Below are positions 4,239 through 64,000 of a DNA stretch of 64,000 bases, one piece after another. Source of the stretch: Clostridia bacterium (GTDB lineage Bacteria; Bacillota; Clostridia; Christensenellales; UBA1242); NCBI GenBank assembly GCA_045597505.1, contig JAZLKE010000034.1, forward strand, positions 11,288-75,287, read 5' to 3'. A program made the translations under genes and the position numbers. The first letter of the stretch is position 1; each line of letters begins with the position of its first letter. The notes beneath the pieces were generated by a model. That model made no database searches. It saw only the letters and a list, made by a program, of their open reading frames with translations, and was not told the origin of the DNA.

Positions 4239-5281
4239 TGTTTGAAGAAATAAGTGCTTTGGAAGAAAAATATGCGCAAATGCTGGAGCAATTAACTTTG
4301 CCCGAAGTTTTTAATGACTTCGCGCGCTATTCCCAAATTTCTAAAGAAGCTGCCAAATTGGCACCCGTAATTGAAGCTTATCGCAAATATCAAAAAATCA
4401 ATGCGGATATTTTGTCCGCTCAAAAAATTGATGACCCAGAACTGGCGGAACTGGCCAAAACCGAAATTGCCGAAAACCAAGTTTTATTGGCACAAACCGA
4501 ACAAGAACTGCGCTTGCTGTTGACACCAAAAGATGAACGCGACGAAGCTAACGTTATTATCGAAATTCGTCCAGCAGCTGGTGGCGACGAAGCCTGCTTG
4601 TTTGCAGCGGTGCTGTTACGTATGTACACTTTATATGCGAACGCCAACGATTTCACTGTGGAAATTACCGATATTGAAGAAAACGGTATCGGCGGTGTGA
4701 AAAATGTAACCTTTATGGTCAAGGGTGAGGGCGCGTATTCCAAGTTCAAATACGAAAGCGGTGTTCATCGTGTGCAACGTGTACCTGAAACTGAGTCCCA
4801 AGGTAGAATTCATACTTCAACTGCGACCGTAGCCGTTTTGCCCGAAGCCACAACAGTGGATTTCCAAATTGACGAAAAAGACTTACGCATTGACGTTTAT
4901 CGTGCTTCTGGCGCAGGTGGACAACACATTAACAAAACCGAAAGCGCGATTCGTATTACCCACATTCCGACCAATATGGTGGTTACGTGCCAAGACGGTC
5001 GCAGTCAGTTAGCCAACCGCGAAAAAGCCATGACGGTTTTGGTGTCTAAATTGGCGCATTATTACCAAAGTTTGGAAGATGAAAAATACGCGTCCGAACG
5101 CCACTCTCAAATTGGTACTGGGGACCGCAGCGAACGTATCCGTACTTATAACTACCCGCAAGGTCGCGTAACCGACCACCGCATTAACCGCACAGAATAC
5201 AACTTGACCAAATTTGTTGACGGCGAAATCGCCGACATGGTCGAGGCTTTGCGTCTCGCCGAATTAAAACAGCAGGCGTAA
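4238..5281 (+). CDS. prfA: Peptide chain release factor 1
   Basis: RVQRVPETESQGRIHTS (RF1-type tripeptide region) and the GGQ motif SGAGGQHINKTESAIRITHIPT. Confidence 0.95.
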   Translation: MFEEISALEEKYAQMLEQLTLPEVFNDFARYSQISKEAAKLAPVIEAYRKYQKINADILSAQKIDDPELAELAKTEIAENQVLLAQTEQELRLLLTPKDERDEANVIIEIRPAAGGDEACLFAAVLLRMYTLYANANDFTVEITDIEENGIGGVKNVTFMVKGEGAYSKFKYESGVHRVQRVPETESQGRIHTSTATVAVLPEATTVDFQIDEKDLRIDVYRASGAGGQHINKTESAIRITHIPTNMVVTCQDGRSQLANREKAMTVLVSKLAHYYQSLEDEKYASERHSQIGTGDRSERIRTYNYPQGRVTDHRINRTEYNLTKFVDGEIADMVEALRLAELKQQA

Positions 5282-50841: not shown

Positions 50842-50916
50842 TTTTACTGACAAAGGAATGGCAAATCTACAATAAAATTTCATTTGTGTTAGTTTGCAAT
50901 AGGTTTGTCAGTAAAA
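50842..50916. repeat. 13-bp inverted repeat TTTTACTGACAAA / TTTGTCAGTAAAA with a 49-nt spacer at the core/accessory junction
   Basis: Arms at 50842-50854 and 50904-50916, verified base by base. ATTGCAA (50835-50841) and TTGCAAT (50894-50900) lie next to them. Confidence 0.8.
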
Positions 50917-50944
50917 ATCCGATAAAAAATATGGTCCGTTAGTA

Positions 50945-50958
50945 AATCAAATTTGATT
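50945..50958. repeat. 14-bp perfect palindrome AATCAAATTTGATT upstream of the first element gene (operator-like)
   Basis: Verified base by base; about 50 nt upstream of ATG 51009. Confidence 0.8.
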
Positions 50959-51008
50959 GAAAGCGGACTTTTTTATGTGCCAATTTCAATCTTGAAAGGG
51001 GCAGCAGA

Positions 51009-51299
51009 ATGGCAAAAGGAAAAATATTGGGCGTATTTGACAAACCCAAGTTTGCAAATAAGGATAAGGTTTCCATACTAAGGAAACAAATATCCGATAA
51101 ACAAATTTTCATTGATGATTTACCCAAAGATGTATTGGAGAACCTGTTGCAATGCGCAATCGCAAGAATTGACCGAAATGAAAATGGTGGCGAAGGCGAT
51201 GAGCGCGATTTCAAAGATTTATGGTGCGACCAAGAATTCATTGTCGATGAATTATTTGAAGAACTTGAAAAAGAAGTAAAGGCAGGCTGTTATGAATAA
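51009..51299 (+). CDS. Hypothetical protein (96 aa) with an acidic C-terminus
   Basis: AAAGGGG SD and an ATGAATAA overlap with the next ORF; no family recognised. Confidence 0.55.
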   Translation: MAKGKILGVFDKPKFANKDKVSILRKQISDKQIFIDDLPKDVLENLLQCAIARIDRNENGGEGDERDFKDLWCDQEFIVDELFEELEKEVKAGCYE

Positions 51300-51471
51300 C
51301 AAAAAGGAATTGACTAAGCCAATAACATTTAGGCTTACGGAAACGATGTACGGAAATATTATTGCAGAAGTTGACCGATTAAACCTTCGCAAAATGAGTG
51401 ATGTGGTTCGTAAAGCGGTTGCCGAATATTTTGACAATCACAAAAAAGAAATCGAAGGAGACAAGAAATGA
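51292..51471 (+). CDS. Ribbon-helix-helix (CopG/MobC-like) protein, 59 aa, absent from the ORF track
   Basis: MNNKKELTKPITFRLTETMYGNIIAEVDRLNLRKMSDVVRKAVAEYF fits a beta-strand/helix/helix pattern. Both ends are translationally coupled to neighbours (ATGA overlaps). Confidence 0.6.
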   Translation: MNNKKELTKPITFRLTETMYGNIIAEVDRLNLRKMSDVVRKAVAEYFDNHKKEIEGDKK

Positions 51472-51665
51472 ATAAAGTCGAACACAAGGTCGAGTGCTGT
51501 GTAATTCCCAGTTACATCTTGCTGGATACTGAATTAACTTCCGGAGAAAAAGAGCAGTTGATACAAGCCGCTCTTGAAAATGGAACTGGAATGGTACACG
51601 AAAGTGATGTGTTAGCTATGAAGGCAGCAAAAAAAACAAAAGGGGTTAAATCATGGAAGAATTAA
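51468..51665 (+). CDS. Hypothetical 65-aa protein, a truncated paralog of the N-terminus of the next gene
   Basis: It shares the motif CVIPxxIxxDxxL(T/S)SxEK with the 117-aa protein downstream. Confidence 0.5.
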   Translation: MNKVEHKVECCVIPSYILLDTELTSGEKEQLIQAALENGTGMVHESDVLAMKAAKKTKGVKSWKN

Positions 51666-52006
51666 CTAACCAACTTGGCTATTACTGTGTAATCCCAGCG
51701 CCCATTATGAGAGACGGTGGTTTGTCGTCTGATGAAAAAATTCTTTATGGCACAGTTTCTGGTATGGCGCGCGAAAAAGGGTATTGTTGGGCAGGCAATG
51801 ATACTTTGGCCAAAATTTTTCCAGACAAGGAAGGTAAACCAAAAGATGAAAGGACGATTCGCCGTTGGTTAAACCATTTGGAAGAAGTTGGTTATATAAA
51901 ACGCACACTTATTTATTTTGAAAATACTAACCAAATCAAAGAACGCCGTATTTATTTAACCGGGAAATGTACACCAGTTCCCGAAGGAGATTTATACAAT
52001 GAGTAA
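51653..52006 (+). CDS. Winged-helix DNA-binding protein of the plasmid/phage replication-organiser type
   Basis: YYCVIPAPIMRDGGLSSDEKILYG...GYCWAGNDTLAKIF...ERTIRRWLNHLEEVGYIKR matches the common HTH_36/Rep-like pattern in Firmicutes mobile elements. Confidence 0.6.
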   Translation: MEELTNQLGYYCVIPAPIMRDGGLSSDEKILYGTVSGMAREKGYCWAGNDTLAKIFPDKEGKPKDERTIRRWLNHLEEVGYIKRTLIYFENTNQIKERRIYLTGKCTPVPEGDLYNE

Positions 52007-52022
52007 TTATTGTTTTAATTTT

Positions 52023-52098
52023 GTCCGTACCCCTGGGGGCACCAGTGTCCCCACCCCTACGGACATTTCCGCCCGTACCCCTGGGGGCATGAATGTCC
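52023..52098 (+). repeat. Two 28-nt GC-rich direct repeats (24/28 identical) 48 nt apart, with embedded inverted repeats
   Basis: GTCCGTACCCCTGGGGGCACCAGTGTCC at 52023-52050 and GCCCGTACCCCTGGGGGCATGAATGTCC at 52071-52098. GTCCGTA (52023-29) pairs with TACGGAC (52058-64). A degenerate third copy GTCCGTCCAGGGCA lies at 52293-52306. Confidence 0.85.
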
Positions 52099-52109
52099 TA
52101 GATATAATA

Positions 52110-52125
52110 ATAACGCGTGCGTTAT
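52110..52125. repeat. Palindrome ATAACGC-GT-GCGTTAT followed by a very AT-rich stretch
   Basis: The 7-bp arms were verified. The AT-rich run spans 52124-52155. Confidence 0.75.
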
Positions 52126-52330
52126 ATGTATTGAATTTATATTTATTATTACACAAGAGAAACAATAGGGGAGTTTTTGAAGAACTAGCCATAGCCAGAA
52201 AATTCCGACACGGCGAATTTGAGAAAAAGGCGGTGGCCGCCATGTAAAATTTTTTTTCTTGTGTTCTCTAAAAGCAGCCCGAAGAAAACGAAGTCCGTCC
52301 AGGGCAGACGGCAAAAAGGAAACAAAAACA

Positions 52331-52663
52331 ATGAACAGATTTGATTTTATTGGAAATTTGACAAAAGACGTTGAGCTGGGTAAGGCCGGTGAAGTGTCGT
52401 TGGCGCGCTTTATGCTGGCGGTAAACCGACCATACAAAAACAAAGAAGGCAAGTACGATGCCGACTTTATCCAACTGAAAGCCTGGCGTGAAGCTGGCGA
52501 AACTATTGCGAAGCACGTAAAGAAAGGCGACAAGCTACGCGTTGAAGGTCGTGTTGAAACTTCGACCTATGAAAAAGACGGTGAAAAACAATACAGCACA
52601 GAATTTATTGTTACCGGCTTTGAATTTTTGAGCAGCAAAAAAGCTGAACCGGAGTCGAAATGA
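52331..52663 (+). CDS. ssb: Element-encoded single-stranded DNA-binding protein lacking the acidic C-terminal tip
   Basis: MNRFDFIGNLTKDVEL OB-fold start. It ends ...SSKKAEPESK rather than D-D-x-P-F. The ATG at 52331 follows AAAGGAAAC; the track start at 52259 is an upstream extension. Confidence 0.85.
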   Translation: MNRFDFIGNLTKDVELGKAGEVSLARFMLAVNRPYKNKEGKYDADFIQLKAWREAGETIAKHVKKGDKLRVEGRVETSTYEKDGEKQYSTEFIVTGFEFLSSKKAEPESK

Positions 52664-52833
52664 TTTCAAACATGGCGCCTATCGTCTTCCCCGACGAAAT
52701 CGAAGTAGCTGAAAGAATGGCAAAGAGAAAAGCACAAGAAGAAAAAATGGCCAATTATTTCGGCCAACCAAAAACTGAAACCGAAGATGATGCCGATGAA
52801 GTCATTGTAGTGGAGAATCCAGATGAACTATAA
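52660..52833 (+). CDS. 57-aa strongly acidic small protein, absent from the ORF track
   Basis: MISNMAPIVFPDEIEVAERMAKRKAQEEKMANYFGQPKTETEDDADEVIVVENPDEL. ATGA overlap with ssb and an 11-nt overlap with the ArdC-like gene. Confidence 0.5.
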   Translation: MISNMAPIVFPDEIEVAERMAKRKAQEEKMANYFGQPKTETEDDADEVIVVENPDEL

Positions 52834-55393
52834 AGAGAAAATCGAATTTGAACGCCAACAAATAGCCGACCGTATTTTGGAAGAAATCCAAAACAACACT
52901 TTGGAATGGAGTCGTGGTTGGCACGGATTGGATAACGGCGCAGCAGTTAATGCTAAAACCGGCAAAAGGTACAATGGCACCAACTTAATTGCTTTGTATA
53001 TCCAAGCCAAAAAACAAGGTTACAAAGACCGACGTTGGCTAACTTTTAACCAAGCAAAAGAACTTGGCGCACAAGTTAAAGCTGGTGAAAAATCCACAAG
53101 AATTTTTCATTGGAATGAATACGATGTAAAAACTAAATCTGAACCGAATTGGAAAGAAATCAATAAATTATCCAAAGATGACAAAGAACAGTATATTCTC
53201 GACAATATTCGATACAGCATTAGTTTACACAGTGTTTTCAATGCGGAACAGTGCAGTGGCTTGAAAGAATATGTGGCGCCAAAATTAAGCGCCAAAGAAA
53301 TGGCCGAGCAAAACGAAAAGATTGAACGTGTGATTGCCAACAGTGCAGCACCGGTACTGTATGACAGTGAGAACCGGGCGTATTATTCCACCAAGGAAGA
53401 CAAGATTCACCTACCGGCGATTGAAATTTTCAAAACCAAAGACGATTACTACGCAACAGCTTTGCACGAAATTGCACATTCGACCGGCCACGCAAGCCGA
53501 TTAAACCGTGATATGTCCGGTGAATTTGGCAGCGAAAAGTACGCCAAAGAAGAATTGCGCGCGGAGTTTGCGTCATTGTTTATACAAAACGAGTTGGATC
53601 TAAACATTGACGGCAAGCACTTTGAGAACCATTCGGCTTATATCCAAAATTGGACCGAAGCAATTCAAGAAGACAAAAATGTCCTTTTTAACGCAATTAA
53701 AGACGCCGGTGATATTGCGACGTATGTTCGCGAACATTACGCTGAGCAAGAAAACACAAAGAAAAATGAAGGAGAAGTTATGGCAGAAGAACAAACAAAA
53801 ACCGATGAAGAACGATTAGAGAAAATTCTAAAAGAACGAAACCTAAATGAAGATAAAAGTTTTGCAAAAGATACTGATTATTTTGGTTTTGGAAGTTTAG
53901 ATGCGCTTGAAAAAGAACATAAATCTGGCTACATTACTAATGTAATAAAAAGCTACAGTGATTGGGCCGATGAAAGTGGCCGCCGTGCTGCTAGTGATTT
54001 GAGCGATGAAGAATTTGAATTTGTCCAGAAACATTACCAATTTGGTGATATGCCAGATGATGTCATTAACAAAATCGTTAATGAAGACAATAACTACTTC
54101 AAAAACAAAAACATTGAAGCTTACAAGTTTACGGCATACCAAACTGTCCTTGCTAACTTAAAAGAAAAACAAGCGATGCCGGAACAAGCAGTGGTGGAAG
54201 AAAAGAAAACACAAGAAAAAAATAAAATTGAACCGCTGGAAATTCACCACGCAACTGAAAAAGCAGTCTTGGTTAAATTAGCGATTGCTGGTGAAGAAAA
54301 GCTAAAAGACACTTGGTGGCCAAAATCACGAGTTGATTTAGACAAAGACGAAAAGAACGTTGTGGCGATTGATAACTACTTGCAAAAGCAATATGGCAAT
54401 GTTTTATCCAAACAAGCCGAAATTACAGCAGCCGCAGTGGGGAAGAGTGTTGCCACTGAACAACCGAAGTTGTCCCCAATGGAATATGCGCAAAAGATGA
54501 ACAATATGCGCTTGGATAACTTGGCCAAAAATGTGCCGGCTGAAATGAAGGCATTGCCAAACTGGTGTGTTTTGAAAATTTACAAAGACAAAGCAACTGG
54601 TACTACCAAAAAATTCATTGTTAATGCAAACAATCCACAAGGTGGCTGGGCTAAACACAATGACCCAAGTAACTGGACAACTTTTGACAAAGCAATGGAA
54701 TATGCAAGAAAGAATAACGGTGCCGGACTTTCTTTTGCGATTAAAGGCAGTGGCTTTAACGCTTTCGATTTGGACCATTGCTATGACAAAGAAACAAAAA
54801 CCTACAATGAAACCGCTAAAAAGTTTTTGGCCGATTTGCCAAATTCCTATGCCGAACGGTCCGTATCTGGAACCGGCTTGCATATTTTCACCAAGGGTTC
54901 CGTTTGTGAAAATGGTAAATACAACGAAGCGCGCGGTGGAGCAGCAGTGGAAGTGTTCGAAACCTGGGGCTTCGTTTCGATGACGGGAAATGTTGTTGAT
55001 GAACAACACAAGAACCTGGTTGATTTACCTGACGAAGTCAAAAAATCAATCCAAACTGAAATTGGCGAAAAGAAAGTTTACCAAGCGCCAGCGCAAAATC
55101 GAAACCAATTCCACAACTATGCGCGAAGCGATAGCGAAGTGATTGATGTAATCCGCAAAAGCAAGAGATCGAACGAGTTCGAGTCATTGATGAACGGTGC
55201 GGATTTATGTGGCGACCACAGTCGCAGCGATTTACGCTTAATGGGCATCTTGGCATACTTCACAAATTCTAATACCAACCAAATGGAAACTATCTTCAAA
55301 CAGAGCAAGCTTTATCGTCCCGATAAAGGTGATTCTTATGTCGAAAGAACGGCCAAATTTGCAGCCAACAATGCAAGCCAACAGGCACGATAA
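52823..55393 (+). CDS. Fusion protein: ArdC-like ssDNA-binding N-domain plus HExxH metallopeptidase, a long linker, then a C-terminal AEP primase-polymerase-like domain with a PriCT-like tail
   Basis: YNGTNLIALY...RWLTFNQAKELGAQVKAGEKS (ArdC_N pattern). ALHEIAHSTGHASRLNR (HExxH). C-terminal FDLDHC...SVSGTGLHIF (D.D plus SxSGxGxH) and SRSDLRLMGILAYF. Confidence 0.7.
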   Translation: MNYKEKIEFERQQIADRILEEIQNNTLEWSRGWHGLDNGAAVNAKTGKRYNGTNLIALYIQAKKQGYKDRRWLTFNQAKELGAQVKAGEKSTRIFHWNEYDVKTKSEPNWKEINKLSKDDKEQYILDNIRYSISLHSVFNAEQCSGLKEYVAPKLSAKEMAEQNEKIERVIANSAAPVLYDSENRAYYSTKEDKIHLPAIEIFKTKDDYYATALHEIAHSTGHASRLNRDMSGEFGSEKYAKEELRAEFASLFIQNELDLNIDGKHFENHSAYIQNWTEAIQEDKNVLFNAIKDAGDIATYVREHYAEQENTKKNEGEVMAEEQTKTDEERLEKILKERNLNEDKSFAKDTDYFGFGSLDALEKEHKSGYITNVIKSYSDWADESGRRAASDLSDEEFEFVQKHYQFGDMPDDVINKIVNEDNNYFKNKNIEAYKFTAYQTVLANLKEKQAMPEQAVVEEKKTQEKNKIEPLEIHHATEKAVLVKLAIAGEEKLKDTWWPKSRVDLDKDEKNVVAIDNYLQKQYGNVLSKQAEITAAAVGKSVATEQPKLSPMEYAQKMNNMRLDNLAKNVPAEMKALPNWCVLKIYKDKATGTTKKFIVNANNPQGGWAKHNDPSNWTTFDKAMEYARKNNGAGLSFAIKGSGFNAFDLDHCYDKETKTYNETAKKFLADLPNSYAERSVSGTGLHIFTKGSVCENGKYNEARGGAAVEVFETWGFVSMTGNVVDEQHKNLVDLPDEVKKSIQTEIGEKKVYQAPAQNRNQFHNYARSDSEVIDVIRKSKRSNEFESLMNGADLCGDHSRSDLRLMGILAYFTNSNTNQMETIFKQSKLYRPDKGDSYVERTAKFAANNASQQAR

Positions 55394-55614
55394 AAAGGGG
55401 GCTTGATGATGACGAAATTTGGCCTAAAAAACACGAAAAATAAAGGAAGCGGGATAAGCGGTGACGCACTTTGCCACTTTTTGGCAACTCACCCCGTAGG
55501 GGTGGGGAGTGACGCACTTTGACAAGTCTATGCGTCACATTTGCGTCACCTTGTGATGCGACAATTTGGAAACCAAATTTCGTTGAGAAAAATTGAGAAA
55601 AAAGGGAGTTAAAA
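55394..55614. promoter_or_regulatory. Candidate origin of transfer (oriT): a dense array of direct and inverted repeats upstream of the relaxase operon
   Basis: GTGACGCACTTTG at 55461-73 and 55509-21. Inverted TGCGTCAC at 55531-38 and 55542-49. Hairpin CACCCC-GTA-GGGGTG at 55490-55504. Outer IR CGAAATTTGG 55413-22 / CCAAATTTCG 55573-82. Hairpin AATTTGG-AAA-CCAAATT at 55563-79. Confidence 0.6.
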
Positions 55615-56091
55615 ATGGCAACAAAAAACACAAAGAAAAATAAACTTACAGTCCGCTTGGCAGATGCCAAAACGCTGTCACTTTTTAATGAACTTTTAGC
55701 AACCAAGGCTTTCCAAAGTCAAAATGTTCTGGCCAACAAAATCATTGATTTTGCAATTAAAGATTTTGCTACAATTTACTTGCCGGGGTACAAGCAAACA
55801 AAACAACCAGCAGCTTCGGCGCAACTCGATGCCAAGGCGGAAAGAATGTTAAAACAAATTAAAGCTACCGTTGAAGATACTCATGTGATGTACATGGTGA
55901 TTGAGCGTATGGTGGCCACTCTTTACAACACCAAAGCAGCTGAACTGAATGGTGAAAAAGTTTCACCGGAAGAATTTGGTACGGGTATGATGACCGATTT
56001 ACCACCCGAATTCCAAGATATGGAACAGGGAGTTATCCAAGGACGCGTAAGACGTTCGGTGGAAGACGACAAGGGGGTGGACGATGAGTAA
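55615..56091 (+). CDS. Putative relaxosome accessory protein with an N-terminal RHH-like fold
   Basis: KLTVRLADAKTLSLFNELL...NVLANKIIDFAIKDF strand-helix-helix pattern. It is translationally coupled to the relaxase (8-nt overlap). Confidence 0.5.
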   Translation: MATKNTKKNKLTVRLADAKTLSLFNELLATKAFQSQNVLANKIIDFAIKDFATIYLPGYKQTKQPAASAQLDAKAERMLKQIKATVEDTHVMYMVIERMVATLYNTKAAELNGEKVSPEEFGTGMMTDLPPEFQDMEQGVIQGRVRRSVEDDKGVDDE

Positions 56092-57298
56092 CAATGTATT
56101 GTTTCAAATTAAGTATTCCGCCAAAAATCCACCGCGTAATTTACCGACTGCAAAAAAGCTTGAATACGCCCAAGAGCGACAATTCTTCGATTGGACCGCA
56201 CCGTACAACTACATTTCGTACACGTTGAACGAGAAAAAAGTGGAGAAGTACAAGGACTTCCAGAGTTATGCCAGCCGTCAAGGCAACCTTGGATTGTTTT
56301 GCGGTGACAAGGTTTACACCGAAGAAGATTTGGCCGAAATCAAGGAACAACTGAAAAACACTGGCAGCCATATCTGGCACGGCTTCATTAGTTTTGATGA
56401 AGAAACAAGCCCGAAGTTCCAGGTCCAAGAACAAGCAATGCACTTTTTGAAACAGCACTTTACTGATTTCATTAACCGTACACATCTTAACGCCGACAAT
56501 ATTTGTGTGGTGGCTTCGTTGCACCGGGATACATTGCACCGTCATATCCACTTTTCATTTTTTGAGAAGGAACCAACGCACGTGGACAAAAACGGTAAAG
56601 TTGGCTATACAACCAAGGGCAACTTCAAACAATCCGTGATTGATAACTGGCTTGTGTCGGCCAATATGGCAGTGGCCGGCAATGATAATTATTACAGCAG
56701 CCGTAATGCTGTGATTTCGAAACTAAAAGAAATGAAAGGGGATATTACGGACCAAGAGATGCAATTAAAATTGTTATCTTTGGCAAAGAAATTTCCCAAG
56801 GAAGGCCGTTGGTCATACAACAGTGAGAACATGGCCGAATTGCGTCCGGAGATTGACAAGCTGGCCACTTTTATCTTGTGTTCTCAACCAGAAGTAAAAA
56901 AACTACACCGAGATTTTTTGCGCGCACTTGCTGAACGTAACAAGAAAGTTGAAGGAATTAAGAACGACAATAAAATTCGTAGCCAGGTTGATTATGTGAA
57001 AAACTTACGCAAGGACTACAAAGCCCGTGTGGGTAATTTAGTAATTGACTTGGCCAAGGAAATGCGCAAGCAATACAAGCCAGCATATTACAAGGAAAGC
57101 AGCAAGCAAAAAAAATACGAAGCCAGGGATATGCGCCGACATGCGGCCAAGGTTTACCGACAAGCTACTGCCACAAGTGCTTTGTTAAAAATGCTGGGCA
57201 ACGTGCAGAAAGGTGTACAAGCTGAATTTACCGATACCGTTAAAGATGTTGAGTACATGATGATGCAAGAAATGATGATGCAGGGGGCTAGCGCATGA
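56084..57298 (+). CDS. Putative conjugative relaxase (MobL/MOBP-like) with a histidine-triad motif
   Basis: YISYTLNEKKVE...GNLGLFCGD N-terminal pattern and SLHRDTLHRHIHFSF (HxDxxxHxH). It sits between the accessory protein and the T4CP. Confidence 0.6.
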   Translation: MSNNVLFQIKYSAKNPPRNLPTAKKLEYAQERQFFDWTAPYNYISYTLNEKKVEKYKDFQSYASRQGNLGLFCGDKVYTEEDLAEIKEQLKNTGSHIWHGFISFDEETSPKFQVQEQAMHFLKQHFTDFINRTHLNADNICVVASLHRDTLHRHIHFSFFEKEPTHVDKNGKVGYTTKGNFKQSVIDNWLVSANMAVAGNDNYYSSRNAVISKLKEMKGDITDQEMQLKLLSLAKKFPKEGRWSYNSENMAELRPEIDKLATFILCSQPEVKKLHRDFLRALAERNKKVEGIKNDNKIRSQVDYVKNLRKDYKARVGNLVIDLAKEMRKQYKPAYYKESSKQKKYEARDMRRHAAKVYRQATATSALLKMLGNVQKGVQAEFTDTVKDVEYMMMQEMMMQGASA

Positions 57299-59496
57299 AA
57301 TCGAAGAAGCACATCATTTTAATCGTTAGTTTCTTGGCCGTAAGTGCCATTGTGCTTTTGCTCACAATGGTAGTAATCGCTTCGCTTGTTTCGAAACGCT
57401 TTGTCTTTAACGGCCAAATTGTTTTGGGCTGGTTCGCAATCATACTAGCAGGCGTTGGATTGTGGTGGGTGAACAAGAAGTCCAACATTGGCAAGCAAGC
57501 AATGAAGGAAAACAAGGATTTGGAAGACACACATTTCCTAACGCCACACGAAATTAAAAACAATGCCGGTTTAACGGTGACCAAGTTCACTAACTTGGGT
57601 GTAGTGGTGGACGGAGTACCGGTTGCGGCCAAAGTGAACAAACAAGAAACTGATGCCGAAGTCATTTTGGCCAAACCGATCCACACACTTGTAATTGGTA
57701 CAACCGGCTCTGGTAAAACGACCACTTTTGTTAGTCCTACGATTGAAATCTTATCCAGGACAAAAACCAAACCAAGTTTGGTCATTACAGACCCGAAAGG
57801 GGAGTTGTACACTTTGCACGCTGATACTTTGAAGAAACAGGGCTACAACGTGCAAGTGCTGAATTTGAGCGAAGTATATAATTCGGCCCGCTGGAATCCG
57901 TTTAGCGGTATTCTGGCTAAGCAAGCGAAAATTGATGCGGCCAGCTACGATGAAATAGTGAAAGAATTGAACAAGTACCATGTACTTGGCAAGGTTTTTG
58001 ACACAAGGGAAGCCGCAAAACATGAAGTGCGAAAGGTTCGTCAAACTTTGATTGATGAAATCTATGCTGATATGGCCGATATTATCTATACGATGTGTCC
58101 GGTGGAGAACCAGCACGACAGCACGTGGCAAAAGGGTGCTAGAGATTTAGTCTTTGCTGTTGCACTAGCTTTATGGGAAGACGTGCGTGACCACAAGATT
58201 AAACCGGAACAGTTAAGCTTGTTTAACATCTACAAAATTTTGACCGAACACGCAAACGACAATCCAACTGATTTGATTGAATACTTGGAAAACCGTGATA
58301 AATTTTCCAAGGTTTGGGGTCTGGCCAAAACTGTGTTGGTTACCACTGATAAAACATTGACCAGTTACCTAGGTGATGTTAGTCAATACATTTCGTTCCT
58401 GAATGACCGCGGAATACAGAGTTTAACGGCCGGCAACGATATTGACTTTACTCATTTCGATGAAGAACCGAATGTGTTGTTTATTAAAATACCTGATTCC
58501 AAAGACAACCGTCACAAGTTAGTGTCTTTGTTATTAGTGCAGATGTATAAGGGGCTTGTTGATAAAGCCGGGGATAACCAACGCAGCGGTCGTACTAAAA
58601 CCGAAGAGTTGTTGCGTACAACCTACTTCATCTTAGATGAGTTTGGTAACCTACCAAAGTTAAACAAGATTGACAGTATTATTACTGTGGGTCGCAGTCG
58701 TAAAATTTTTATGATACCGATTATCCAGAACTTCAAGCAGCTCGATAACAAGTATGGTAAAGATACGGCCGAAATCGTTAAATCGAACTGCAATATTAAA
58801 ATTTTCATCCAGGCTGGTGATGCTGCAACCACGGAAGAGTTTTCTAAACTTTGTGGCAAGCACAAAATTGTTAAGAAATCATTTAGTGAGAACAAGGACA
58901 CTAGCGTTTCGGCCAGTGTGGAAGAACGACCGTTGATTACACCGCACGAATTGCAAAACTTAAACGATGCAAGCGCTGGTCGTATGGGCAATGCCGTTGT
59001 CTTGGCGCTGGGTAAAAATCCGTTGAAAGCAGTTTTCACACCGTGCTTCAAGGCAAAAAGTTTGTATCCGCTAGTGGAATCTGCCTTGGCCGATGTGGAA
59101 CAAGAAGAGTTTAACGAGCGAGAGTTATATGTTGATATAACTAAAATCGAAGGTACGAAGCCGGAAGAAAAAACACAAGAAGAACAAGCAGCTGATAAAC
59201 CGGACGAATGGGCCGAACAGAAAGAAACCAAAGTAGATGATGAAAAGGACGAACTATATAAAAAGTTAGAAAAAAAGTTAGTTTCGTTGAAACTTGCATT
59301 GAAACCATTTTTGACTGCAAAAGAATTTGAGTCGTTGATGAACAGCGATATGATTGAAGTTTTTGATGTACTTGAAACTTTGATTGAAAAATTACAGAAG
59401 AAAGATGTTGTGGCCGCTGCAATGGCGATTGAACTGAAAAGTTTTGTCCAGCACAAGATGTTGACTTATGCCGATGTTGACCAGAACACAGCGTGA
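57295..59496 (+). CDS. Type IV secretion coupling protein (VirD4/TraG family)
   Basis: Two N-terminal TM helices, Walker A GTTGSGKTT, Walker B FILDEFGNL, and an acidic C-terminal tail. Confidence 0.88.
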   Translation: MKSKKHIILIVSFLAVSAIVLLLTMVVIASLVSKRFVFNGQIVLGWFAIILAGVGLWWVNKKSNIGKQAMKENKDLEDTHFLTPHEIKNNAGLTVTKFTNLGVVVDGVPVAAKVNKQETDAEVILAKPIHTLVIGTTGSGKTTTFVSPTIEILSRTKTKPSLVITDPKGELYTLHADTLKKQGYNVQVLNLSEVYNSARWNPFSGILAKQAKIDAASYDEIVKELNKYHVLGKVFDTREAAKHEVRKVRQTLIDEIYADMADIIYTMCPVENQHDSTWQKGARDLVFAVALALWEDVRDHKIKPEQLSLFNIYKILTEHANDNPTDLIEYLENRDKFSKVWGLAKTVLVTTDKTLTSYLGDVSQYISFLNDRGIQSLTAGNDIDFTHFDEEPNVLFIKIPDSKDNRHKLVSLLLVQMYKGLVDKAGDNQRSGRTKTEELLRTTYFILDEFGNLPKLNKIDSIITVGRSRKIFMIPIIQNFKQLDNKYGKDTAEIVKSNCNIKIFIQAGDAATTEEFSKLCGKHKIVKKSFSENKDTSVSASVEERPLITPHELQNLNDASAGRMGNAVVLALGKNPLKAVFTPCFKAKSLYPLVESALADVEQEEFNERELYVDITKIEGTKPEEKTQEEQAADKPDEWAEQKETKVDDEKDELYKKLEKKLVSLKLALKPFLTAKEFESLMNSDMIEVFDVLETLIEKLQKKDVVAAAMAIELKSFVQHKMLTYADVDQNTA

Positions 59497-59498
59497 GA

Positions 59499-59520
59499 TT
59501 TGTATAGACATCTATACAAA
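59499..59520. repeat. 22-bp palindrome TTTGTATAG-ACAT-CTATACAAA (copy 1 of the GTATAGACATCTATACA core)
   Basis: The 9-bp arms were verified. It is followed by an A-run rather than a T-run, so it is not a canonical terminator. Confidence 0.85.
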
Positions 59521-59542
59521 AAAACAAAAAAAAGGAGAAAAA

Positions 59543-59761
59543 ATGACATTAAAAAAAGAATTGTTAATTATTTGTGGAAGTTATTTGTTGATAAATATTG
59601 TATTTCTTGCCGTTTGTTTAGCTATAAAGGCTTACGTAGTGATTGAATATGCCTATTGGGGAACATTGATTGTTGGGATTGAAGCTTCAATTATTGGAAT
59701 TGTTTATTGCATTATCAAGGGGGTTGCGGAAGCAAAGAAAAACAAAGGAGAACAAAAATGA
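59543..59761 (+). CDS. Small two-TM membrane protein (72 aa)
   Basis: AAAGGAGAAAAA SD, MTLKKELLIICGSYLLINIVFLAVCL..., ATGA overlap with parA. Confidence 0.55.
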   Translation: MTLKKELLIICGSYLLINIVFLAVCLAIKAYVVIEYAYWGTLIVGIEASIIGIVYCIIKGVAEAKKNKGEQK

Positions 59762-60537
59762 AAGTTATAGCGATAGTAAATCAAAAAGGTGGAGTTGGAA
59801 AAACCACAACGGCAGTTAATTTGTCGTGCGGTCTGGCTAAAAAAGGATACCGAGTACTAGCTATTGACCTAGACCAACAAGGTCACTTGACAAAAAGCCT
59901 TGGTATTGATGTCAAGGAAATGGGTATTGTTAATACTGCATCTAAATGGTTGATGAATAGTTTGCCATTGGACGATGTTATTGTAACCGTGCATGGTATT
60001 GATGTTGTACCAGCTGATATTACTTTGGCCAGTTTGGAATTAAAACTGCAACAAGAGTTAATAGACAGGGAATATACACTTGGCAAAGAAATTTCAAAAG
60101 TTGCTGACCGTTATGATTATGTAATTGTCGACAGTTCGCCAAGTTTTAATATCATTACGATAAATATATTAACAGCGGCTGACCGTGTAATTCTTCCACT
60201 GTGTCCGGATTTTCTAAGTAAAGACGGTGGTTACAAACTTTTGGAATCTATTGAGCAAATCCAGAAACGCATAAATCCAAAGTTAAAACTTACCGGATTT
60301 TTACCAACATTGGTTGATAAGCGTTGTAACAATGCAGCATCGTTCGCAGAAGCTGAACAACTTACCAAACAGTATGGTGGAGTAGTGTTTGGTGAAGGTA
60401 TTCGTTTAGCTAGTGTTTTACGCAAGGCGCCCGAACATGGAATGAGTATCTTCGATTATGATCCAAATTCGGCCGCAGCTAAGGACTACCAAGCATTTGT
60501 TGATAAATTTGTGGAAATCGAAGGAGAAGAGAGATGA
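59758..60537 (+). CDS. parA: ParA/Soj-type partition ATPase
   Basis: MKVIAIVNQKGGVGKTTT deviant Walker A and the VIVDSSPS motif. Confidence 0.9.
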   Translation: MKVIAIVNQKGGVGKTTTAVNLSCGLAKKGYRVLAIDLDQQGHLTKSLGIDVKEMGIVNTASKWLMNSLPLDDVIVTVHGIDVVPADITLASLELKLQQELIDREYTLGKEISKVADRYDYVIVDSSPSFNIITINILTAADRVILPLCPDFLSKDGGYKLLESIEQIQKRINPKLKLTGFLPTLVDKRCNNAASFAEAEQLTKQYGGVVFGEGIRLASVLRKAPEHGMSIFDYDPNSAAAKDYQAFVDKFVEIEGEER

Positions 60538-60911
60538 CAACACAAGGAAAATTAGTTGGTTCAGTGTTAGATGATTTACTGGCGGTAAATAAACCGATTT
60601 TAGCCAAACAAGAAAAAACAATCTTGCTGAGTTTGCGTATGAGTACCGGGTTAAAAGCTGCTTTCAAAAAGTATTGTTTTTTGCACGACAAAGATATGAC
60701 TAAAATTCTTGTTGATTTTATCTTTGACCAACTGCAAGATTTTGAAAAACTCGAAAAGATTGAAAACAAATATGCCGGCAGCACCACGCCGTGGAATTTT
60801 CGTATTCCAGAGAAAATTCGTGATGATTTTCACCGCACGTGCAAAGAACACGGGACTGATGCTACTACGCAACTCACGCAATTTATTTTAAGGACGGTGG
60901 AAAATGCGTAA
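60534..60911 (+). CDS. Putative centromere-binding/regulatory protein with two tandem ribbon-helix-helix-like units
   Basis: TILLSLRMSTGLKAAFKKYCFLHDKDMTKILVDFIFDQL and WNFRIPEKIRDDFHRTCKEHGTDATTQLTQFILRTV. ATGA overlap with parA. Confidence 0.55.
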   Translation: MTTQGKLVGSVLDDLLAVNKPILAKQEKTILLSLRMSTGLKAAFKKYCFLHDKDMTKILVDFIFDQLQDFEKLEKIENKYAGSTTPWNFRIPEKIRDDFHRTCKEHGTDATTQLTQFILRTVENA

Positions 60912-63900
60912 GCGTATAGACATCTATACAGTTTTATTAGTTGCCGTGCTGGCTATTGTGTCCGGTCTATTTTCTCTTGTGTTTTCTAACCAAAATACAA
61001 CAAATAGTGCCGATGAAAATACAATGACCACAACACTGCAACCAGCAGCAATTAATGGTGGTGGAATTTATAATTTCGATAGTGGTAGTAGTAATAATCC
61101 TAATAGTATTTGGTTTATTCAAGTTCAAGGTACTGGTAGTGGTTGGCAAGAGTGTACAGTCACTAATGGTATAAATCTTTCTATATCACAAGCAACTATA
61201 CGTTTTTCGTGGGGTGCAAAACCATATAGCAATAGGGGTGACCGATTTTTACGTACAAAAAAAGGAACATGGGAAATTTCTTGTAATGGGCAAAAAGTCG
61301 CTAGTGGTACAGGTGTTCCAGGTGTGAGTGATACTGGAAAAGAAGGAAAACAGACAGGCGATTGGTATACTGGATATTTATCAGAAGGTAATTACACTGT
61401 TAAGGCCGATTTAATTATGAACAACTGGATTGGCCATGAATGGGGAGAAAGTACATCAATCAATTTCATTGTCGACCGAACTGCACGCAGAATTATCGTC
61501 ACCAAGGTGGAAAGTAATAATAGTAATAATACAGTGGCACGGAATGGGATTACAAACACAGCCGTGAAGGCTAGCAATAATGAATCTGGTACAATGCAAT
61601 ATAGTCGAACTAACTTGAATGGAAGTAAACCAACCAGTGCTACCACTAGCTATACTGCTGGACAAGAACTTTCGGCCGAAGGACATTATTGTTTTACGGC
61701 TACAGATAGTGCTGGAAATACCAGTGCAATTTATAGTTTGACGATTGATAAAACGAAACCACAAAACAATTTTGGATATACTGTAAACGCAGGTAAAGCA
61801 TATACCAACGATGATATTCATTACATGCCGACTGATAATTATTTGATGAAGGATGTGGCTGTTAAGTATAAAAATGGCCAGTGGGCGCATTCGGCTGCCG
61901 AAGCAGCCAGTTATGGCTATAACGTAATCTTTAATGATAAACAAATCACAGTGCCGAAAGAAAGTGGTAATGGTGAATGGTATTTCCAAGCCGAAGATAT
62001 GGCAGGAAACAAAAGTGATGAATATTGTGTTGTATTAAGTTATTTGGATACCTTTGGTAACCAAGAGCAAATCCGCAATAGTTACATAAGTAACTACTGG
62101 TACAATATCGCGTTGCCGGCCAATATTTATGGCGATGAAGCTGGAATCTATTCTGCTTCGAGTTACGAAACAGCTTTGGCTTTTGCTACACAAAAGGAAT
62201 GGGATTTTCGTATAACACCGACGCCAAACGGCTGGCGTTATGTCAATTCGAGTAATGGTAACTTGTCGCAGGAGTATACGGATAGGGCAGAACTTGATGC
62301 AGTAGTCGATAAATACGCCAAGTCGTATATTAAAGACCGAGTTGTGGCCAAGAATGGTACTAATAATTTTGATAAAATTATTAACGATGAACTTTATTTG
62401 GATAAGACGGCGTTAGTACGACAATGGATAGCGAAGCCAGATTTTCTGCCAGATGACGATTTGCCAATCTATATGATGCGTAAAGATTTCAAATTTGTTG
62501 ACCCCAAATTTCCTTCTCAAACCTATGTTAAGATGCAAATGATTGCCAACGACTTAGGTTTAGTATCCAGGGCAGAAGTAAATTTAGCGTATGATGTAAA
62601 AGTTGAAAACCAAGTTTTAACTACTGGTAATAATAGCCAAGGATATTATTTAGTTACTGAATGGGATAATGCTGGAAATAGTGAACAGTACTATGTTTAT
62701 ATTGATTTGTCGGCACCAACCTTAACGGTTGATGTAGTTTATGGTAATAACACAACAGAAAATATTACTTTTGATGAGAGTAAAATTGAAGAGTTGGCGG
62801 GTACGTTCCGTTATTTATCGCTGGATATGCAGCAGATTGCCGATAGTATTGATCGCTTTGTTACAATGAAGATTAACGGTCGCAAACTATCTGATGCAGT
62901 TTATATCCAGGGCGATGAATTGCCAATTCTTGATGGAGTGGAATACTATGGCAATTATACGATTGAACTCTATGACCGCAGTGGTAACACACTGACTTTT
63001 GTTATTACGATTGCTGGCGAAGCACCAAAGATGACACACAGTTCATTGAACAGTGATACCAGCTGTCGTTTAACTTTGGAAGTTCCAGATTATAACGACA
63101 CAATAGAAGAATTAAAATTGTTCTTCATTACTTACGAAGGCGTATATGTCGAACTAACCGAAGACCATAAGGAAGTTCTGGTTACGCCAGGCACGTTGCA
63201 ATATACTTTAACAACTGGCGGTAAATATACAATGTGGTACCGGGATTTATTTGGCCGCGAAACATATTGCACGCCAGTGTTCTATTTGAAAGGTTTACCA
63301 ACGGCCACATTGTCCGGCGTTACCGACGGTGGAATCACTAACCGAAATGTGTCGTTGAAATATAGTGAAGGTAATTCGTTAATCTTGTACCGCGTGGAAA
63401 ATGGCACTAAAACGGAAGTTCCACTTGACGGCACAATTTATACTCAAACCTACGATGAAACCAGCCATAGATACACGGCCATGCTTATGGCCAACGAAGA
63501 CACTACGGCTTCGTACGAGTTTTTCCTATACAAAGGGGACGACAGGAATTTATTCGTTGAATACACGTTTTCGATTGACTGCATTATTGCACCAATTTAC
63601 ATCTACGACAATAATGGTAATGCAATAGCCAAAAATGCTTTTTCCAATAAACCATTTCAAGTTTATTGGAATGAAACGGTAACCTTGCGCTATTATACCG
63701 ACAAAACACCGGGTGGAGAAACCGGTGCAGTGCGCTATACAATGGGAACATTGCTGTCGGCGGACGGTACCTATTACTTTACACTGAAAGATAGTGTTGG
63801 CAACCAAGAAAATTTTACAATTTTGCTTGATACGGTTGTTTCCTATGAACTAGGTGGAGAATATGTGAGACTTGGCGAACATGAATACATTGCCAAAGAT

Positions 63901-64000
63901 GATATACAGTTTTCAATAACGGAATCCACAAGTGTGTTAAGTTTTACCAGCATTCCAGATGTGGTGAATGGTGGCTATATCATTTTGGAAGGTGTGTATA
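60904..64000 (+). CDS. Large membrane-anchored surface protein with repeated Ig-like modules; 3' end beyond the window (>1032 codons)
   Basis: I translated every 60-nt line from 60904 to 64000 in this frame and found no stop. N-terminus MRKRIDIYTVLLVAVLAIVSGLFSLVF (TM anchor). Recurrent module ends include TATDSAGNTSAIYSLTIDKTKP, AEDMAGNKSDEY, EWDNAGNSEQYYVYIDLSAPT, LYDRSGNTLTFVITI and LKDSVGNQENFTILLDT. It is not in the ORF track, probably because it has no stop within the window. Confidence 0.85.
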   Translation, partial: MRKRIDIYTVLLVAVLAIVSGLFSLVFSNQNTTNSADENTMTTTLQPAAINGGGIYNFDSGSSNNPNSIWFIQVQGTGSGWQECTVTNGINLSISQATIRFSWGAKPYSNRGDRFLRTKKGTWEISCNGQKVASGTGVPGVSDTGKEGKQTGDWYTGYLSEGNYTVKADLIMNNWIGHEWGESTSINFIVDRTARRIIVTKVESNNSNNTVARNGITNTAVKASNNESGTMQYSRTNLNGSKPTSATTSYTAGQELSAEGHYCFTATDSAGNTSAIYSLTIDKTKPQNNFGYTVNAGKAYTNDDIHYMPTDNYLMKDVAVKYKNGQWAHSAAEAASYGYNVIFNDKQITVPKESGNGEWYFQAEDMAGNKSDEYCVVLSYLDTFGNQEQIRNSYISNYWYNIALPANIYGDEAGIYSASSYETALAFATQKEWDFRITPTPNGWRYVNSSNGNLSQEYTDRAELDAVVDKYAKSYIKDRVVAKNGTNNFDKIINDELYLDKTALVRQWIAKPDFLPDDDLPIYMMRKDFKFVDPKFPSQTYVKMQMIANDLGLVSRAEVNLAYDVKVENQVLTTGNNSQGYYLVTEWDNAGNSEQYYVYIDLSAPTLTVDVVYGNNTTENITFDESKIEELAGTFRYLSLDMQQIADSIDRFVTMKINGRKLSDAVYIQGDELPILDGVEYYGNYTIELYDRSGNTLTFVITIAGEAPKMTHSSLNSDTSCRLTLEVPDYNDTIEELKLFFITYEGVYVELTEDHKEVLVTPGTLQYTLTTGGKYTMWYRDLFGRETYCTPVFYLKGLPTATLSGVTDGGITNRNVSLKYSEGNSLILYRVENGTKTEVPLDGTIYTQTYDETSHRYTAMLMANEDTTASYEFFLYKGDDRNLFVEYTFSIDCIIAPIYIYDNNGNAIAKNAFSNKPFQVYWNETVTLRYYTDKTPGGETGAVRYTMGTLLSADGTYYFTLKDSVGNQENFTILLDTVVSYELGGEYVRLGEHEYIAKDDIQFSITESTSVLSFTSIPDVVNGGYIILEGVY
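60914..60929. repeat. 16-bp palindrome GTATAGACATCTATAC (copy 2), inside codons 4-9 of the large ORF
   Basis: The 17-nt core is identical to 59502-59518 (60914-60930). Confidence 0.85.

Follow-up and report, generated by a model that had tools for sequence, protein, structure and literature searches.

We analysed a 64,000-nucleotide stretch of DNA from a Clostridia bacterium (the window hereafter) and concentrated on the gap at positions 52007-52330, which separates the gene of a 117-aa winged-helix protein from ssb and belongs to an integrative conjugative element of about 22 kb with a DDE transposase. The region is most likely the counterpart of a replication origin lying inside a phage initiator gene, such as oriL of SPP1. 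As judged from sequence, positions 52022-52150 would form the origin core of the circular form of the element, and the 117-aa protein would be its origin-binding protein. We consider it highly probable that this protein binds the repeats of the gap and, with less assurance, probable that the region works as a vegetative origin. Iteron origins internal to an initiator gene are a known kind; what would be new is the host, a DDE-transposase conjugative element, together with an initiator cut down to its DNA-binding domain and a linker that has become a reading frame of its own.

Relatives were collected by means of the winged-helix protein, the primase-polymerase of the element, a DNA motif and an 82-codon open reading frame (ORF) that overlaps the gap. 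This gave 14 distinct DNA versions of the region, 12 of which differ substantially. In the window, a repeat array of about 3.3 units (52022-52098) begins 16 nt past the stop codon of the winged-helix gene. The first-pass annotation, made from the same DNA, had described two direct repeats with a 48-nt period. Their exact 17-nt core, CCGTACCCCTGGGGGCA, does occur twice (52025 and 52073) and nowhere else in the window (chance expectation 0.04), but the true period is exactly 24 bp: three dyad-symmetric 20-bp units start at 52022, 52046 and 52070 and are followed by a half-site at 52094. Each unit is built of an 8-bp arm, CCCC and the inverted arm. Iteron 1 (52022-52041) reads TGTCCGTA-CCCC-TGGGGGCA, iteron 2 (52046-52065) TGTCCCCA-CCCC-TACGGACA and iteron 3 (52070-52089) CGCCCGTA-CCCC-TGGGGGCA, while the fourth site (52094-52098), in the same 24-bp register, has the left arm only (TGTCC). 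An inverted pair noted earlier is present as well (52022-52042 and 52045-52065), except that its supposed inverted partner is the middle repeat unit, and the GC-rich island described for the whole gap is confined to its first 100 nt or so (54%), the remainder not being GC-rich.

The array is followed by a conserved box made of GATAAT, AT-rich letters and ACGCG(Y)G (52101-52121). As already annotated, a palindrome, ATAACGCGTGCGTTAT (52110-52125), then leads into an AT-rich run, here delimited as a 33-nt segment with 85% AT (52118-52150), which is a candidate DNA-unwinding element. All 12 relatives have such a segment (28-33 nt, 83-96% AT), its position and composition being kept.

The first-pass annotation had made its reading depend on conservation of the repeats in homologous elements, and their layout is kept in the twelve relatives: the core CCCC recurs throughout, as do the 24-bp register and the number of copies (three and a half, except for one relative with four full units), and the repeats are confined to one site per element. 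The arms, on the other hand, are element-specific and homogenised within each element, and fall into the classes TGTCC, TGCGAC, TGCAAC, TATACC, TTCAC and GTTAG; in every relative the half-site arm switches together with the full arms (TGCAAC, TGCGAC, TATACC, TTCAC). Arm positions are Watson-Crick complementary in 240 of 296 cases (81%), and the positions that are not show no strand bias (15 G.T, 19 A.C), which argues for duplex palindromes read by dimers rather than for hairpins of one strand.

The candidate reader of these palindromes is encoded immediately upstream, on the plus strand (51653-52006). The 117-aa protein matches Pfam HTH_36 (2.5e-9) and shows homology to phage replisome organizers and replication initiators, namely to the N-terminal domain by which they bind origins: in PHROG it matches replication-initiation families (best 9e-16), in their N-terminal part only, and of the 87 phage records that it matches, almost all bear the annotation of a replication initiator. 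A staphylococcal phage-like initiator is 43% identical to it over 94 aa (pairwise E=1e-19), and its distant plasmid matches lie within phage-like replication modules, beside helicase or loader genes. An AlphaFold (AF2) model (mean pLDDT about 80 for residues 21-100) places a recognition helix at residues 66-79 and a wing at 82-102. Comparison of the protein with the sequences of solved structures and with NCBIfam returned nothing informative, and a Foldseek search of the model against the PDB found generic winged helices only, among them the N-domain of DnaD and a complex of a plasmid Rep with DNA, so that initiators and regulators are not separable by these matches.

Among the relatives, the arm class corresponds exactly to the motif KPK-xxx-T-x-xx-W of the winged-helix protein (label permutation of arm class against helix motif, p=2e-4), and the seven co-varying residues, 65-71, are placed by the AF2 model at the N-terminal half of the predicted recognition helix. 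Two pairs of elements indicate that the match is independent of overall relatedness. Outside the motif, the proteins of L014 and L015 are only 53% identical; inside it they are 100% identical, and both elements have TTCAC arms. L001 and L013, 94% identical outside the motif, differ by two motif residues (DRA against DKV), and their arms are one base apart. The iteron arms and the recognition helix appear to have evolved in step, with at least six classes of specificity as the outcome.

We compared the region with eight initiator genes, six of phages and two of phage-like plasmids. All eight contain direct repeats of 22-24 bp with a CCC(C)T core, which start where homology to the 117-aa protein stops and lie in the initiator's own reading frame, and in all eight the repeats are followed by AT-rich boxes of the AATAATAC type. 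The box at 52101-52121 is the counterpart of these boxes (AATAATAC or GATAATATTACA). Even the frame is common to the 82-codon ORF and the phage linkers, ACC CCT being read as Thr-Pro and GAT AAT as Asp-Asn. In Enterococcus phage SEsuP-1, ACCCCTAGTGAA, which in L014 and L015 makes up the core plus right arm of the unit, occurs twice, once within a full TTCACTACCCCTAGTGAA unit identical to that of L014, and the phage's recognition helix resembles the L014/L015 helix (SKRTIISW against TKRTVINW).

In phage lambda, the iterons TCCCTC-AAAAC-GAGGGA lie within gene O. Like the lambda origin in gene O and SPP1 oriL, the region described here combines an N-terminal winged-helix origin-binding domain with dyad-symmetric direct repeats of about 20 bp (22-24-bp period), which directly follow the coding sequence of that domain. 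An adjacent AT-rich unwinding region and the translation of the repeats as a linker in the same frame are further features in common (for SPP1, PMC6316719). For SPP1 oriL it was shown experimentally that directly repeated sequences and an AT-rich unwinding element within gene 38 are bound by gp38 (PMC6316719). Unlike in the phages, the gene would be split here: the N-domain ends 14 codons past the homology, and the linker appears as a separate, translationally coupled ORF. The region also differs in lacking a C-terminal recruiting domain and an adjacent helicase or loader gene, in residing in a conjugative element and in having extra conserved blocks between the AT-rich segment and ssb.

In the mechanism that we propose, dimers of the 117-aa protein (51653-52006) would bind the three 20-bp iterons and the half-site (52022-52098), the bound complex would destabilise the adjacent box and the AT-rich segment of 28-33 bp (52101-52150), and the excised circle would start replication there with host replication proteins, perhaps also with the SSB and the primase-polymerase of the element. 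We infer binding, melting and origin firing alike, as well as the roles of the primase-polymerase and of the ssb-proximal blocks discussed below. The gene context fits a replication module, with a ribbon-helix-helix-like gene upstream, ssb and the primase-polymerase downstream, and ParA further on. The proposal of the first-pass annotation that iterons and an AT-rich element by a Rep-like gene make a vegetative origin is supported by initiator homology, by the co-variation of helix and arms and by the eight of eight initiator genes with the same layout.

Several points weigh against an origin at this site. No DnaA box was noticed in the region by eye, no pattern search for one having been run. 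The protein stops at residue 117, without the C-terminal domain by which phage initiators bring in a helicase or loader, and a gene for either was not seen among the neighbours in the examined part of the element. Few of the phage origins in the comparison have been mapped experimentally. Conjugative elements with this type of relaxase could replicate by rolling circle from oriT alone. Finally, the array lies directly upstream of the ssb-ardC-primase block and could be an operator.

In this last reading, the winged-helix protein would act as a transcription factor on its three and a half sites and so control an establishment promoter of ssb, the ArdC gene and the primase-polymerase, to give transient expression after transfer, as is reportedly the case for Reg and its operators on plasmid p576. 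We consider this possible but unlikely. The location upstream of ssb and an ArdC-type gene suits an operator, as does the ribbon-helix-helix-like gene upstream, and co-variation indicates recognition, not its function. Moreover, the last half-site is followed by a -10-like hexamer (TATAAT, 52103-52108; GATAAT in most relatives). However, a consensus scan of both strands of the gap found no -35/-10 pair, and a hand search for a positionally conserved pair found none either, as the -35 position falls in the variable arms; a second -10-like hexamer reads TTTAAT in four relatives, where it lacks the critical A. The annotation of nearly all phage-record homologues as replication initiators also speaks against it, and the layout of repeats plus AT-rich box occurs mid-gene in phage initiators, where no promoter is expected. 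In addition, an outward promoter at the other end of the element (see below) would read across the circle junction into the operon. An operator is thus the weaker explanation, because it lacks a conserved promoter and leaves the architecture shared with phage initiators unexplained.

A precedent for such an operator comes from plasmids of the pLS20 family, which have MobL too and regulate establishment genes by repeat operators beside a promoter (PMC8708921). Their EGeRS1 and EGeRS2 sequences resemble the present case in the MobL relaxase and in a conserved, repeat-bearing sequence upstream of an ardC or ssb-type block (PMC8708921). EGeRS1 is locally GC-rich, with inverted repeats and no constitutive promoter, and EGeRS2 has direct-repeat operators (PMC8708921). 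However, EGeRS1 is 420-750 bp long, folds very strongly and is found in several copies per plasmid, whereas our region is unique in its element and folds weakly; and EGeRS2 combines a strong sigma-A promoter with a ribbon-helix-helix repressor, whereas the repeats here come without a conserved -35/-10 pair.

The half of the gap next to ssb contains four conserved blocks that have no counterpart in the phage initiator genes compared. Past the repeats, the 5' to 3' order is the GATAAT...ACGCG box, the AT-rich segment, ACACAAGAGAAACAAT, a variable spacer, GGCGGTGGCCGCC, T8-CTTGTGT, GAAGTCCGTCCAGGGCAGACGGCAA and the ssb ribosome-binding site. The block ACACAAGAGAAACAAT (52151-52166; identity about 0.83) has a complement that reads as a T-rich run plus CTTGTGT on the minus strand. 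In the spacer (52167-52215), relatives have 0-2 copies of a GCCGTGGTTCGATTTT...ACCACGG hairpin module; the insertions and deletions of this spacer (window 52167-52215 and the equivalents in L015, L019 and L025) always leave the ORF open. The block AAAGGCGGTGGCCGCCA (52226-52242; identity 0.87) lies just before the ORF stop (52245-52247) and includes the palindrome GGCGGTGGCCGCC (52229-52241), so that GGCGG-TGG-CCGCC followed by a T-run (T8, 52250-52257) had been correctly described. T8-CTTGTGT (52250-52264, plus strand; identity 0.89), the most conserved block, is a candidate priming site, and GAAGTCCGTCCAGGGCAGACGGCAA (52290-52314, plus strand; identity 0.85-0.88), nearly invariant, carries a 5-bp hairpin before the ssb ribosome-binding site. 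Across elements, the four blocks (ACACAAGAGAAAC, AAAGGCGGTGGCCGCCA, T-run-CTTGTGT and GAAGTCCGTC..GGGCAGACGGCAA) are 0.82-0.89 identical, whereas the flanking genes give 0.51 at third codon positions and 0.72-0.78 at the other two.

The ssb-proximal hairpin, CCGTC-CAGGGCA-GACGG, is located at 52297-52313. It had been thought to contain a degenerate third repeat copy; the hairpin is there, the repeat copy is not, since the sequence is nearly invariant and remains unchanged whatever the arm class, while the arms of the relatives are quite different. Its own arms (GTCCGTC / GACGG, 52292-52313) resemble the iteron arm of the window, GTCCGTA, and also the iterons of the staphylococcal phage-like initiator (L028 4282-4350, TATCCGTC...GACGGA), which may reflect a relic iteron or a coincidence. 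Two transcriptional roles for the palindrome GGCGGTGGCCGCC were considered. It was rejected as a plus-strand intrinsic terminator together with the T-run, as the spacing between them ranges from 6 to 25 nt and the palindrome or block is absent in L006; for a minus-strand antisense RNA ending at this hairpin, the scan found no minus-strand promoter.

Two of the blocks, 52151-52166 and 52250-52264, are inverted copies of each other, so that on each strand a T-rich run is followed by GTG (52250-52264 on the plus strand, the complement of 52151-52166 on the minus strand). Primase-polymerases with a helix-bundle domain of the NrS-1 and pRN1 type read 5'-GTG-3' and initiate on the bases that lie 5' of it, such as an oligo(dT) (PMC8718748). 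By analogy, and purely as a hypothesis in view of the shortness of GTG and of the frequency of the motif in the element, these motifs might be priming sites for the element's primase-polymerase. The string TTTTCTTGTGT (at most one mismatch) occurs 12 times in the window against 4.5 expected, over 52151-60982, with 8 occurrences within the 13 kb of the element; this excess may merely reflect the A-rich composition of the coding strand.

A bolder scheme may be imagined, which we regard as a long shot. The primase-polymerase would start both strands at the inverted T-run and GTG motifs (52151-52166 and 52250-52264), with the N-domain opening the AT-rich segment, to make a host-primase-independent, RSF1010-like leading-strand-mode origin out of phage parts in a Firmicute conjugative element; the ORF would be open only because ribosomes must cross the origin, which would couple operon expression driven from the circle junction to origin use or to ssb translation; and the six helix/iteron classes would be incompatibility groups, by which related elements could live side by side. 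RSF1010 oriV comprises 3.5 iterons, a GC-rich and then an AT-rich segment and two inverted priming sites, used with the plasmid's own AEP-fold primase, RepB'. The layout here is similar, with 3.5 iterons, an AT-rich segment after a short GC box, a pair of inverted motifs and an element-encoded AEP-fold primase that has a helix-bundle domain. Unlike in RSF1010, the initiator has a fold different from that of RepC, there is no RepA-type helicase, and the inverted motifs are simple T-rich plus GTG strings instead of 40-nt hairpins.

The first-pass annotation had judged a single-strand function equally suggested by the position upstream of ssb. In such a reading, the transferred strand would fold into an Frpo-like promoter or into an ssi/sso priming signal, for early ssb expression or complementary-strand synthesis in the recipient. 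Like Frpo and ssi (F, ColIb-P9), the region is upstream of ssb, in an orientation towards a probable oriT (55394-55614), so that the minus strand would presumably be both the transferred strand and the template. Folding of the whole gap is somewhat better than that of shuffled sequences (z -2.2 to -2.8), probably owing largely to the repeat palindromes, and the 52151/52250 pair could form a helix of 11-12 bp in 12 of 12 relatives; the preference of helix-bundle primase-polymerases for T-run plus GTG templates would also fit (PMC8718748). However, unlike Frpo and ssi, the region has no long imperfect hairpin and no -35/-10 within any stem; the sole long-range stem, at 12 bp, is too short for a promoter. 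For the segment 52205-52335, neither strand gives a better fold than its shuffles do (z +1.2 to -0.5), and the repeat palindromes lack strand-specific wobble. Support for the 52151/52250 helix is weak, since most of its pairs never vary; four change on both sides, and as much is seen in 27 of 500 shuffles. In addition, the wobble pairs of this helix and of the ssb-proximal hairpin, in which one stem pair varies from C-G through T.G to T-A, a wobble valid on the plus strand only, favour the plus strand and not the presumed transferred one. All together, these results make an Frpo-type element very improbable.

Contrary to its description as non-coding, the gap is largely covered by an 82-codon ORF (51999-52247, plus strand). 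Its ATG overlaps the stop of the winged-helix gene (ATGAGTAA; ATGnnTAA), and a Shine-Dalgarno sequence, GAAGGAG (51983-51989, plus strand), lies within the C-terminal codons of this gene. The Shine-Dalgarno sequence (GAAGGRG/AAGGAG) is found 7-9 nt before the ATG in most of the relatives, several having a weaker one (GAAGG/ACGGGG), and the frame is open in 12 of 12, as compared with 0.1-0.6% of shuffles of local composition. Gene callers annotate the ORF, 24 variants of which are present in the protein database, and the untranslated gap before ssb shrinks to 78-93 nt. These features suggest that the ORF is probably translated. A programmed frameshift fusing the two ORFs is unlikely, because the second ORF also has its own Shine-Dalgarno sequence and because, in most relatives, the second frame is closed 3-39 nt before its ATG.

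The features just listed would also fit an ordinary protein gene, in which the 82-aa product is functional and the DNA repeats merely encode a TTPGxxxx peptide repeat, and a real protein across the region had been named as the finding that would speak against an origin. The ORF is conserved and apparently translated, but it does not behave like an ordinary protein gene. Its substitutions are flat over codon positions (28/15/28, for example, as compared with 15/12/49 in flanking genes), and the ratio of synonymous to non-synonymous changes is about 1:5 to 1:8, while both flanking genes have about 1:1 to 1:3 (1.5:1 in the closest pairs); as the earlier annotation had suspected, the repeats drive the amino-acid sequence, with which this substitution pattern agrees. 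One conserved DNA block, ACACAArrAAACAATAGGG, is translated in one frame in some relatives and in another frame in others. Within the conserved C-terminal codons (52226-52242), four-fold degenerate sites are invariant in 9 of 12 relatives, which indicates DNA-level constraint, and the conservation runs beyond the stop. The ORF matches no Pfam family and has a single, non-significant PHROG match, and its variable repeat residues track the recognition helix encoded next door, a DNA-level relationship. We therefore find an ordinary protein gene hardly plausible. The ORF rather shows no amino-acid-level selection, its sequence being dictated by constraints on the DNA, and is best read as a descendant of the iteron-encoded linker of an ancestral initiator; it would be selected to stay open, perhaps in order to keep ribosomes on a long operon transcript. 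That the region is a decaying, now functionless remnant of a captured initiator gene, as the reduction to the N-domain and the frame-shifted rest of the gene might suggest, is just as implausible, since blocks 0.82-0.89 identical against 0.51 at neutral third codon positions, repeats homogenised per element and co-varying with the protein, and a 24-bp register and open frame kept in all relatives point to ongoing selection.

The left end of the conjugative element is located at about 50846, just past the rpsO terminator and some 1.18 kb from the iterons. From this end, small genes (one of them ribbon-helix-helix-like) are followed by the winged-helix gene, the repeat region, ssb, a 57-aa gene and an ArdC-zincin-primase-polymerase gene, then by the probable oriT, an accessory gene, the MobL relaxase, a coupling protein and ParA. 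The ribbon-helix-helix-like gene (51292-51471) encodes 59 aa, which match the plasmid copy-control family ORF56 only weakly and below threshold (E=0.0025); all relatives have equivalent small genes ahead of that for the winged-helix protein. ssb (52331-52663, plus strand; Pfam SSB 1.4e-20) opens the block that continues with the 57-aa gene and the fusion of ArdC-N, zincin and primase-polymerase with an NrS-1-type helix-bundle domain (52823-55393, plus strand). In most elements the primase-polymerase is part of this fusion (754-856 aa); it stands alone (403 aa) in the element of an Eubacteriales metagenome-assembled genome (L006 6019-7230). The probable oriT (55394-55614), upstream of the accessory gene and the MobL relaxase, has a mean column identity of 80% over 8 elements. 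Within it, a 9-mer that differs between elements (GTGACGCAC in some, GTGGTTCAC in others) is present four times, twice in direct and twice in inverted orientation, along with a hairpin (CTCACCCC-GTAG-GGGTGGGGAG) and an invariant palindromic stretch, GCGACAATTTGGAAACCAAATTTCG. After the ParA-like genes, an ORF of more than 1,030 codons (60904-64000), surface-protein-like with repeated domains, runs off the window.

The relatives keep the gene order, and the housekeeping genes next to them in their hosts differ (rpsO, frr, smc, cysS, jag). Insertions (50846-64000 in the window; L006, L009, L013-L015, L021) lie downstream of rpsO, frr, smc and jag and share the orientation of these genes, the cysS insertion being beside the 5' end of cysS, which is oriented divergently. 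Integration relies on a DDE transposase of the rve family and not on an integrase (L019, L025). In four contigs of 14-23 kb (L019, L020, L025, L026), the other end of the element is joined upstream of the module; this end carries a VirB4-type gene, toxin or helix-turn-helix genes and the rve-family DDE transposase, an arrangement that indicates a circle or a junction form of about 22 kb. From ACTGACAAAGG onwards the elements resemble each other, and just before it the junction contigs have a strong outward-facing TTGACG-17-TAGTAT/TATAAT promoter (L019 and L025, about 4240-4480); only in circles would this promoter drive the rep-ssb-primase-relaxase operon. At the left end, an inverted repeat, TTTACTGACAAA / TTTGTCAGTAAA (50843-50854 and 50904-50915), is kept in relatives and is possibly a transposase-binding end.

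Scanning of a genome collection with the primase-polymerase yielded one related element only, and a metagenome scan with the DNA motif yielded one new element plus three chance GC-rich matches, which were discarded. Viral contigs gave no matches when scanned with two DNA motifs and a protein profile, the ArdC segment was the sole match in a DNA-level search of plasmids, and Rfam, at gathering as well as permissive thresholds, returned nothing relevant in the gap.

Among known elements, TnGBS offers a parallel. TnGBS elements also have a DDE transposase, their circular form replicates like a plasmid, and this was proposed to be general for such elements (PMC3942029). The present family shares with them conjugation, circular forms, ParA and insertion beside diverse housekeeping genes (PMC3942029). 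Unlike the transposase of TnGBS, which is Mutator-like and matches rve only weakly, the transposase here matches Pfam rve and rve_3 strongly, and the relaxase also differs, being MobL.

Our results suggest a probable vegetative origin, together with its binding protein, for an uncharacterised family of DDE-transposase conjugative elements, several of whose source assemblies are apparently gut samples, and they add to the view that conjugative elements of this type replicate as circles. Among the relatives, at least six natural combinations of a recognition helix with its matching site are available, including a pair that differs by one base and two residues; this series could serve directly for tests of DNA reading by this winged-helix family and for the construction of orthogonal pairs of origins or operators. 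Finally, a frame that is kept open and apparently translated without amino-acid-level selection calls for caution, both with gene callers and with the label "non-coding".

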